The notes beneath the pieces are model-generated. The model was given only the letters and a program-made list of their open reading frames with translations, was not told the DNA's origin and did not search any database. The position numbers and the translations under genes are program-made. Source: a virus. Taken from it: a DNA stretch of 64,000 nucleotides. The stretch is from positions 1-64,000 of the IMG/VR virus record IMGVR_UViG_3300035499_000465; one strand, written 5' to 3'. Every line of letters begins with the position of its first letter. Within the stretch, counting starts at the first letter, position 1. Below, one piece after another: positions 6,491-7,576 of the stretch.

Positions 6491-7576
6491 TTATATTTGT
6501 CTATAAAAATCTAATAAATATTGAATTTCTTCTACAGTTTGTTTACATTCATCTAATGTATTATATATATCTGTGGTTATTCTTATTGAAGATTCAGCAT
6601 CACCAGGATCCATTCCACCAGCTTTAAATATGGTAATAAGTTCTGGTTCTCTTACTTTTGTCTTAGGAATTGGTCTTACACAAATTCCACCTCGTTTTTC
6701 TACAAAGCTTTCAGAACTACATGCGCTTCCAGTAGAAACACAAATATCTTTTTCAGAGAGTAAATTCTGTAATTCAGTACCATTCATATACCAAAAGCTA
6801 ATATTTACATTATTTGATGCTCGAAATTCTTTATCTGGACCATTTAAACGAGAATAAGGAATTTTTGTTAATTCATCAATTAAATAATCTCTTAATAGGA
6901 TATTATGTTTTTTATTCTCTTCTAAATTACTTAAATTTTTACGCAAAGCTACAGCCATTGCTAATGCTAATCCAGAGCAAGGTGTTCCACCAGTAACGTC
7001 GCCGCCCCAAATAAGAGATCTTACCGGCAATAGTCTTCGATTAATAATTAAACATCCAATACCTCGAATTCCATTGAACTTATGAGCTCCAAAAGCTAAC
7101 AAATCAATACCAGACTTTTTAAAATTAAATTCCATGTGACCAATACCCGCAGTACCATCGCAAAAAATTAAATCTTCTTCATGTTCTCTTTTTGGAATTT
7201 CATAAATTTCTCCGTAAATATTATTTACTAACATTTGAACATATCCATTTTTATCTGGATTGTCAACTGGCGAGAAGGCCATAATAGGTTTTAATACTGC
7301 ACTATGTTCATATTCATTATAAATAATATTACAATTATTATCTCTAAGAATTTGAATTGCCCAGTTACAAGCCTCAGTTGCGCCACTTACAAAAAATACC
7401 TCTTCAATATCACACCCTATATCCTCAGCAATCATTTGTCTTGCTTTTTCAAGATCTTTATTTGCTTTTATTCCAATTATGTGAGTTGAATGCGGATTTC
7501 CAAAATTACTATTTTGAAAAGCTTCAATCGCTTCTGGAAATGGTCGTGTTGTTGCATTATTATCTAAATATATCAT
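6491..7576 (-). CDS. cysteine desulfurase (IscS/NifS-like class V aminotransferase)
   Basis: PLP-lysine context FGAHKFNGIRGIG. Active-site Cys loop STGSACSS. 361 aa. The only long - strand gene in the first 63 kb. Confidence 0.85.
   Translation of the reverse strand: MIYLDNNATTRPFPEAIEAFQNSNFGNPHSTHIIGIKANKDLEKARQMIAEDIGCDIEEVFFVSGATEACNWAIQILRDNNCNIIYNEYEHSAVLKPIMAFSPVDNPDKNGYVQMLVNNIYGEIYEIPKREHEEDLIFCDGTAGIGHMEFNFKKSGIDLLAFGAHKFNGIRGIGCLIINRRLLPVRSLIWGGDVTGGTPCSGLALAMAVALRKNLSNLEENKKHNILLRDYLIDELTKIPYSRLNGPDKEFRASNNVNISFWYMNGTELQNLLSEKDICVSTGSACSSESFVEKRGGICVRPIPKTKVREPELITIFKAGGMDPGDAESSIRITTDIYNTLDECKQTVEEIQYLLDFYRQI

Follow-up and report, generated by a model that had tools for sequence, protein, structure and literature searches.

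What use has a phage for an enzyme that mobilizes sulfur, and why should its gene lie at the edge of a cluster of transfer RNA (tRNA) genes? The question is raised by a cysteine desulfurase gene within the first 64,000 nucleotides (nt) of the IMG/VR virus record IMGVR_UViG_3300035499_000465, a stretch that we refer to, at its full length, as the window. An earlier note on this DNA, made from the sequence alone, had called the product IscS/NifS-like and had offered two roles for it: a sulfur supply for thiolation of the phage tRNAs, or iron-sulfur (Fe-S) assembly for the phage radical S-adenosylmethionine (radical-SAM) protein NrdG. Our analysis indicates that the protein is very probably a cysteine desulfurase of a phage-specific, minimized type I lineage. 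The placement of its gene in a tRNA array hints, without proof, at a sulfur supply for tRNA modification. Coordinates and residue correspondences are collected in Table 1.

The phage protein is a divergent type I cysteine desulfurase

The protein matches the Pfam family Aminotran_5 (PF00266, E = 2.7e-41), and its best sequence match in the PDB is the T. maritima NifS-like protein 1ecx (E = 4e-39). It also matches PHROG 12787, annotated as "unknown function" (E = 7e-59). Among the NCBIfam models, NifS gives the highest score (172.8 bits), followed by IscS (139.9), DndA (130) and SufS (87). All of these lie far below the equivalog cut-offs (530.75 bits for NifS, TIGR03402; 643.2 bits for IscS, TIGR02006; 480 bits for DndA), so that the protein represents a divergent subfamily and not a NifS or IscS equivalog. 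An AlphaFold2 model, for which 57 sequences were aligned, has a predicted local distance difference test score (pLDDT) of 88 and a predicted template-modeling score (pTM) of 0.87, with pLDDT <50 at residues 285-300 only. When the model was searched with Foldseek, it aligned with 1ecx, human NFS1 and IscS (1p3w) at template-modeling (TM) scores of 0.83-0.86.

Residues were mapped onto E. coli IscS, using a reference identical to PDB 1p3w at 404/404 positions. Both signature motifs, FGAHKF (His165-Lys166) and STGSACSS (Cys286), are present. The lysine that binds pyridoxal phosphate (PLP), the catalytic cysteine, the stacking histidine, the aspartate and the substrate arginine do not vary among 57 sequences that reach down to 33% identity. 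Loss of the active-site cysteine or of the PLP lysine, which the earlier note had named as grounds for abandoning its identification, was thus seen in none of these aligned relatives. The loop that carries Cys286 has low pLDDT, as expected of a mobile loop, and satisfies the group I consensus SSGSACTS. We therefore regard the enzyme assignment as solid: family match, fold and catalytic residues all identify a type I cysteine desulfurase, in keeping with the original IscS/NifS-like label. Judged by its residues, the protein is probably active.

Two other assignments were rejected. A type II desulfurase (SufS/CsdA) is disfavored by the group I motif in place of RxGHHCA and by the scores of the SufS models (≤87 bits). 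IscS proper, the housekeeping enzyme of the iron-sulfur cluster (ISC) system, is disfavored because the protein ends directly after the last core helix and no open reading frame (ORF) with an IscU motif occurs in the window.

The enzyme belongs to an old, phage-only family

A search of 5.8 billion proteins returned short relatives (344-369 amino acids (aa), 34-66% identity), nearly all from metagenome contigs, followed by ordinary bacterial NifS proteins (380-395 aa) at ~33% identity. An identical protein is present on JGI and Logan metagenome contigs. In neighbor-joining trees based on Kimura distances, the short phage family is monophyletic with 99-100% bootstrap support, and the clade that includes the window sequence (clade A; 13 sequences, 54-66% identical) is recovered with 100%. 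The IMG/VR database contains at least 129 relatives. They reside on two kinds of contigs: clade A contigs of up to about 196 kb and integrase-carrying temperate phages of 40-88 kb.

To look for an origin in a host or a prophage, we scanned one genome for each of 185,579 species and found no close cellular copy. The best match, 36% identical, is on a 3.8-kb contig of a metagenome-assembled genome, and the remaining matches are NifS proteins at 29-32% identity, many of them from Clostridia, Lachnospiraceae and Christensenella. The GC content of the gene (30.9%) is close to that of the window (31.7%), which argues against a recent import. Protein matches in GenBank phage records are at most 34% identical, most of them on unannotated records named for Listeria, Staphylococcus and Enterococcus phages; a near-identity DNA search of positions 5500-9000 against 50,697 GenBank phage records gave no match. 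Thus, we conclude that the desulfurase is not a recent host copy and that the family is phage-specific, old and common in gut viromes. The statement in the earlier note that phages rarely encode sulfur-mobilizing enzymes does not agree with a single family of at least 129 IMG/VR members, nor with several virome papers that, by their titles and abstracts, list cysteine desulfurase as a viral auxiliary metabolic gene.

The phage family has lost parts of the fold and two cofactor contacts

The phage enzyme shares with the cellular NifS, IscS and NFS1 proteins (1ECX, 1P3W) the fold, the S-x-G-S-A-C-x-S motif on a flexible loop and the Lys/His/Asp/Arg catalytic set. However, it is only 27-33% identical to them and shorter (361 aa versus 380-404 aa), and no scaffold gene adjoins it. 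The phage family lacks a segment equivalent to IscS ~115-146, about 30 residues of the PLP domain that form an edge beta-strand and a helix in the secondary structure of the model. The helix preceding Asp180 (IscS numbering) is also missing, as is the C-terminal tail (IscS about 376-404), which in IscS contributes to IscU binding (IscS-IscU complex 3LVL).

Three replacements distinguish the family (IscS numbering): Gln183 by alanine (Ala143), Ser203 by glycine (Gly163) and Asp79 by cysteine. No member of the phage family departs from Ala143 or Gly163, whereas the glutamine, serine and aspartate are retained in all bacterial relatives examined. We take Gln183 and Ser203 of IscS to contact the O3' and the phosphate of PLP, respectively (1P3W structure). 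With both replaced, the cofactor pocket is altered, though the residues that bear the chemistry remain. Among the cysteines, Cys70 (codon 7367-7369) is invariant in all phage clades and an aspartate in bacteria, Cys55 is nearly invariant in the family, and Cys82 is specific to clade A.

All 13 clade A sequences carry an insertion of 20-25 residues that begins four residues after the catalytic cysteine, and all 13 have a second loop cysteine, Cys299, within it. In the window protein the loop reads SAC-SSE-SFVEKRGGICVRPIPKTKVR-EPE. Among the aligned relatives, neither the other phage clades nor the bacteria have such an insertion. A phmmer search with the 63-residue loop segment against 1.84 billion representative proteins returned a clade A representative as the sole strong match; two further matches are weak and probably spurious, and no precedent for the insertion was found.

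The gene is a transcription unit of its own

The desulfurase gene is a self-contained transcription unit with its own promoter, ribosome-binding site and terminator (Table 1). Perfect TTGACA-17 nt-TATAAT promoters occur six times in the window, compared with 0.03 expected from 300 dinucleotide shuffles, so that they can be taken as real signals of this phage. The terminator hairpin occupies nearly the whole 33-nt gap (6458-6490) between tRNA-Cys and the desulfurase stop codon, in agreement with the 34 nt given in the earlier note. The predicted RNA fold has an energy of -19.4 kcal/mol on the + strand (z -4.6) and -19.9 kcal/mol on the - strand (z -5.4), and the U-tract is stronger on the + strand. 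Neither the - strand promoter nor the bidirectional terminator appears in the earlier note, which instead described the gene as flanked by + strand promoters. That description applies on the upstream side, with promoter-like sites at 7631-7659 and 8016-8044, and fails on the other side, where the + strand has none from 5500 to 7096.

As had been remarked for its immediate region, the desulfurase stands alone on its strand: it is the sole Pfam-supported - strand gene in the whole 64 kb. The + strand ORFs of at least 100 aa all belong to one co-directional series. No family was matched by the two remaining - strand ORFs that are free of overlap (38082-38396 and 63224-63649). GC skew in the window is negative in the 6001-8000 bin only.

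The five other perfect promoters are at 32849-32877 on the - strand and at 31130, 33013, 37846 and 38094 on the + strand, several of them within coding regions. The one on the - strand lies between gyrB and an RNase H gene. Downstream of this promoter no ORF of 100 aa or more starts on the - strand, and it may serve an antisense or small RNA.

Desulfurase genes recur beside tRNA genes in diverged phages

We examined the neighborhood of the gene within 10 kb on either side in 67 related phage loci (≥33% identity; individual loci are given L-numbers). In 64 of the 67, tRNA genes lie no more than 3.1 kb from the desulfurase, usually upstream and on the same strand; no tRNAs were found elsewhere in the regions examined. 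In clade A the desulfurase is in every case located within an array of 9-20 tRNAs, on either strand. Homologous arrays surround it in L001, L004, L008, L010 and L017. Its strand is opposite to that of the array in L001, L008 and L010 and the same in L004, L006 and L017, and in L004 the gene starts 28 nt past tRNA-Ile(UAU). The temperate-phage loci show a single synteny of DUF4942, tRNAs, HU, small ORFs, desulfurase and integrase.

In two recoded relatives the desulfurase genes contain in-frame TAG codons, two in L004 (10001-11089) and five in L017 (10001-11101), rendered as glutamine in the database proteins. Suppressor tRNAs (anticodon CUA, and in L017 also UUA) are encoded in the same arrays. 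The window phage apparently uses the standard code, with TAG terminating 2 of 19 long ORFs.

Small basic ORFs are interspersed among the window tRNA genes at 4005-4373 (122 aa), 4519-4818 (99 aa, with a CSCCCCS motif) and 5218-5544 (108 aa). None of the three has a Pfam family above cut-off. Homologues occur in the tRNA arrays of L001, L010, L017 and L004, beside the desulfurase in three of those loci. In temperate loci (L023, L030, L033, L053, L056, L098 and others), ARAGORN predicts, next to the desulfurase, tRNA-like genes whose anticodon loops are abnormal, with "anticodons" of two (aa, ga) or four (gagt, ggta, agaa) nucleotides. These could be frameshift-suppressor-like or otherwise non-canonical tRNAs.

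Host thiouridylases as candidate sulfur acceptors

In bacterial relatives, the gene directly downstream of the desulfurase encodes IscU/NifU in 16 of 50 loci (strict motif) and a PP-loop protein in 10 of 50. Three of the PP-loop neighbors were scanned with Pfam; two (L148 and L133) are ThiI, with THUMP and ThiI domains and no rhodanese, and one (L131) is MnmA. In neighbor-joining trees the phage family falls with bacterial desulfurases encoded directly upstream of ThiI, at a weak 40-44% bootstrap. Direct desulfurase-thiouridylase pairing is established in Gram-positive bacteria, where NifZ serves ThiI, for 4-thiouridine at tRNA position 8 (s4U8), and YrvO serves MnmA, for 2-thiouridine at position 34 (s2U34) (PMC5372745). 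These bacterial type I desulfurases stand alone and need neither Tus nor IscU-type relays (PMC5372745).

We tentatively favor, with somewhat less than even confidence, an active, minimized type I desulfurase that is transcribed by host RNA polymerase and passes its persulfide to host thiouridylases for the thiolation of phage tRNAs. In a PLP-dependent reaction, the enzyme would convert L-cysteine to alanine and leave an enzyme-bound persulfide on Cys286. Host RNA polymerase would transcribe the gene independently from the perfect sigma-70 consensus promoter, in the direction opposite to that of every neighboring gene and with a timing that we can only infer, and transcription would stop at the bidirectional hairpin shared with the tRNA array. 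As the enzyme has no scaffold or acceptor of its own and its IscU-binding tail is lost, the persulfide would be handed directly to host sulfur acceptors. The lysis domains SH3_3, NLPC_P60 and CW_7 make a Gram-positive host likely, and the likeliest acceptors would be the stand-alone Gram-positive thiouridylases ThiI and MnmA, normally matched one-to-one with a dedicated desulfurase. This would enlarge the sulfur supply for thiolation of the many tRNAs that the phage encodes. In clade A, Cys299 on the loop that is longer by 20 residues may let the persulfide reach farther, acting as a relay or a resolving thiol. A review has raised the idea that a dedicated desulfurase might supply the resolving cysteine for ThiI (PMC5372745); Cys299 is a candidate for such a role.

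Delivery to host thiouridylases is favored because tRNA genes are the most recurrent neighbor of the desulfurase and because the IscU-binding tail is gone. The existence of direct desulfurase-ThiI and desulfurase-MnmA pairs in Gram-positive bacteria (PMC5372745) argues in the same direction, as does the effect on phage yield of partitioning sulfur between Fe-S clusters and tRNA thiolation: in E. coli, the split of IscS sulfur between IscU and TusA/tRNA thiolation alters the yield of phage lambda (PMC3296357).

A number of observations weigh against this proposal. A six-frame scan of the 64-kb window and the clade A loci detected no PP-loop (SGGxDS) thiouridylase, rhodanese or IscU/NifU motif, and neither TusA nor SufE is encoded in the window or near the clade A relatives. 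The MnmA/ThiI/TtcA-type genes that the earlier note suggested looking for are thus missing from the 64 kb and from within 10 kb of the gene in close relatives, which leaves tRNA thiolation, if any, to the enzymes of the host. The affinity of the family to ThiI-linked enzymes in the trees is weak and joins long branches. The NCBIfam scores are about a third of the equivalog cut-offs, and the family-wide replacements of Gln183 by Ala143 and of Ser203 by Gly163 could alter activity. As the temperate loci share one synteny, the 64 tRNA-linked loci amount to only ~3 independent lineages, and L021, L081 and L082 have no nearby tRNA at all. The tRNA arrays also carry unrelated cargo, including M23 and C39_2 peptidases, an SDF transporter and glycosyltransferases, so that the co-location of desulfurase and tRNAs may be merely positional. 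With their in-frame TAG codons, the desulfurases of L004 and L017 could not be translated before a suppressor tRNA works. Lastly, in the temperate relative L021, which lacks tRNA genes, and also in L022, a 319-aa protein encoded two genes downstream (11787-12746 in L021) has a CPMKCKFC motif of the CxxxCxxC type and a sub-threshold match to Radical_SAM (E = 1.3e-4), which points to Fe-S supply. Of the thiolation role first suggested, what stands is the linkage to tRNA genes in diverged lineages together with the weak tree affinity to ThiI-linked desulfurases.

Other explanations for a phage desulfurase

The main rival is Fe-S supply, in which sulfur would pass to host NifU/SufU or directly to apo-proteins, so that phage Fe-S enzymes, above all the radical-SAM activase NrdG, would stay loaded during infection. 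We consider this unlikely, though several observations favor it. The window encodes both NrdD and NrdG (anaerobic ribonucleotide reductase), as the earlier note had said of NrdG, which also carries the sole radical-SAM motif in our scan. Many of the closest bacterial homologues are directly upstream of IscU/NifU, NrdG-like genes lie 5-7 kb from more distant phage desulfurases (L011-13, L082), and the radical-SAM-like neighbor in L021 fits the same role. However, no scaffold gene is present in the window, the C-terminal tail is missing, and NrdG is 52 kb away in a different module on the other strand. Across lineages it is tRNA genes, and not genes for Fe-S enzymes, that recur as neighbors. To our knowledge, moreover, most phages that encode NrdDG carry no desulfurase. 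The proposal that this gene serves NrdG in particular therefore found no specific support.

More doubtful is a general manipulation of sulfur or cysteine with no dedicated acceptor, by which the enzyme would raise sulfane sulfur/H2S and alanine or drain cysteine, its position next to tRNA genes being accidental. The unrelated cargo of the relatives' tRNA arrays is consistent with this, as are the virome reports of viral cysteine desulfurases, and Cys299 could resolve the persulfide intramolecularly and release sulfide. No partner gene is conserved beside the desulfurase across clades either: all-against-all clustering of neighbors found no small partner protein common to clade A and the temperate phages, conservation being confined to each group, and the small ORFs adjoining the desulfurase have no Pfam match even at E up to 0.5. 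Against such a role, the tRNA linkage persists at 33-40% enzyme identity in phages of very different size and lifestyle, and the family is old, with strongly constrained catalytic residues. If the linkage does prove merely positional, the gene would simply join the known auxiliary metabolic genes for sulfur.

We think it very unlikely that the PLP protein is impaired in catalysis or has been repurposed, for instance as a decoy that engages host acceptors or partners of the host desulfurase and redirects sulfur without turnover. Such a function would account for the loss of two PLP-contact residues throughout the family, the deletion of an edge strand and two helices from the PLP domain, and the low NCBIfam scores. 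On the other hand, the model core is predicted with confidence, and invariance of the Schiff-base lysine, catalytic cysteine and their companion residues across all 57 sequences would hardly be expected without catalysis.

Sulfur donation for modification of the phage-genome backbone or bases in the manner of DndA/SspA (phosphorothioation) can be rejected: the phage protein is like them a short type I desulfurase (SspA has 348 aa) of the kind found in mobile or defence-related loci, scores 130 bits with the DndA model and matches PDB DndA (3vax) and SspA (6m4j) over the N-terminal third, but that score is below those for NifS and IscS and far under the 480-bit cut-off, and the annotated ORFs of the 64 kb include no DndC-type PP-loop protein, DndD/E, or other dndBCDE or sspBCD equivalent.

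Relation to known systems and significance

Supply of host thiouridylases, the reading that we favor, would set the phage enzyme beside the NifZ-ThiI and YrvO-MnmA pairs, with which it shares a tie to tRNA biology in addition to the weak grouping in the trees. It differs from them in having no adjacent thiI or mnmA, either in the window or in the clade A loci, and the partner would be the host's. The ThiI-linked bacterial enzymes also retain Gln183, Ser203 and a full-length PLP domain, whereas the phage family does not.

Neither the enzyme class nor the presence of desulfurase genes in viruses is new. With the viral iscS/sufS auxiliary genes and with PHROG 12787 the window gene has in common that it is a phage-borne cysteine desulfurase homologue, and virome papers treat such genes, in their titles and abstracts, as auxiliary genes of sulfur metabolism. 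Within the titles and abstracts of the literature searched, we found no description of a phage-only minimized clade, of the Gln183/Ser203 replacements, of a two-cysteine loop or of linkage to tRNA genes.

Should the enzyme prove active and supply the thiolation of tRNAs, phage tRNA arrays would bring with them means of maturation and not just spare tRNA genes, and phages would intervene in how the host partitions cysteine sulfur. A more far-reaching version, which we regard as speculative and improbable as a whole, is that gut phages with Gram-positive hosts carry a mobile "tRNA plus sulfur" module, in which, in clade A, a swinging arm from Cys286 to Cys299 replaces sulfur carriers, host ThiI or MnmA docks on the enzyme, and thiolation (s4U8 and/or s2U34) comes under phage control. 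Were this so, possible gains include passage of tRNA quality control, tuning of decoding or frameshifting, and resistance to anticodon nucleases. The family is, moreover, a natural minimal type I desulfurase, shorter by one beta-strand and two helices and without Gln183 and Ser203. Together with the extended two-cysteine loop of clade A, it could be useful for studying what persulfide formation and delivery require of the fold.

Genomic context

Table 1 Features of the desulfurase locus in the 64,000-nt window and correspondence of residues with E. coli IscS
Feature	Positions	Strand	Remarks
Cysteine desulfurase ORF	6491-7576	-	361 aa, ATG start
His165-Lys166 codons (PLP Schiff-base lysine; IscS His205-Lys206)	7079-7084	-	Invariant in alignments A1 and A3
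Catalytic Cys286 codon (IscS Cys328), in STGSACSS	6719-6721	-	Invariant
Asp140-Gly-Thr-Ala143 codons	7148-7159	-	Asp140 = IscS Asp180; Ala143 in place of conserved Gln183
Clade A insertion, 20 residues in mobile Cys loop (SFVEKRGGICVRPIPKTKVR)	6650-6709	-	Includes Cys299, codon 6680-6682
Thr67 (IscS Thr76)			Conserved, invariant in relatives
His91 (IscS His104, PLP-stacking)			Invariant
Asn119 (IscS Asn155)			Invariant
Asp140 (IscS Asp180, to pyridine N)			Invariant
Thr198 (IscS Thr243)			Invariant
Arg332 (IscS Arg354, substrate carboxylate)			Invariant
Sigma-70-type promoter, perfect TTGACA-17 nt-TATAAT	7601-7629	-	24 nt upstream of ATG
Ribosome-binding site AAAGGGGG	7586-7593	-	9 nt before ATG at 7576; read from sequence
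Bidirectional intrinsic terminator, 14-bp hairpin	6459-6490	both	A-run on one side, T-run on the other
tRNA-Cys(GCA)	6385-6457	+	Final gene of + strand tRNA array; convergent with desulfurase
Phage tRNA array, 11 tRNAs, small conserved ORFs interspersed	74-6457	+	Conserved genomic setting of desulfurase
NrdD	57773-60013
NrdG	60010-60492

The window comes from a large, low-GC tailed gut phage. After the tRNA array, the gene order runs through an island of RNA-repair and ribonucleoprotein (RNP) genes to an endolysin, GyrB/GyrA, an NAD-dependent ligase, DnaB, RecJ, Pol III alpha, NrdD and NrdG. With the tRNA array, endolysin, replisome and NrdDG, the phage origin assumed at the outset is clear.

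The RNA-repair/RNP island (8132-26232) follows the tRNA array and is bordered by the desulfurase gene, a neighborhood that we count with the tRNA linkage in favor of a tRNA role. It encodes a DUF2828+DUF7788 protein, a Thg1-like protein, an HD protein, an RlaP-like nucleotidyltransferase, three metallophosphoesterases and RNase T, as well as a cREC-REC protein, an RNA ligase, YqeY, NADAR, an AAA_33 kinase and an SPFH/flotillin protein. The island also encodes an 814-aa protein that resembles the major vault protein (MVP_shoulder, 3e-21), and such a vault-like protein is unusual for a phage.

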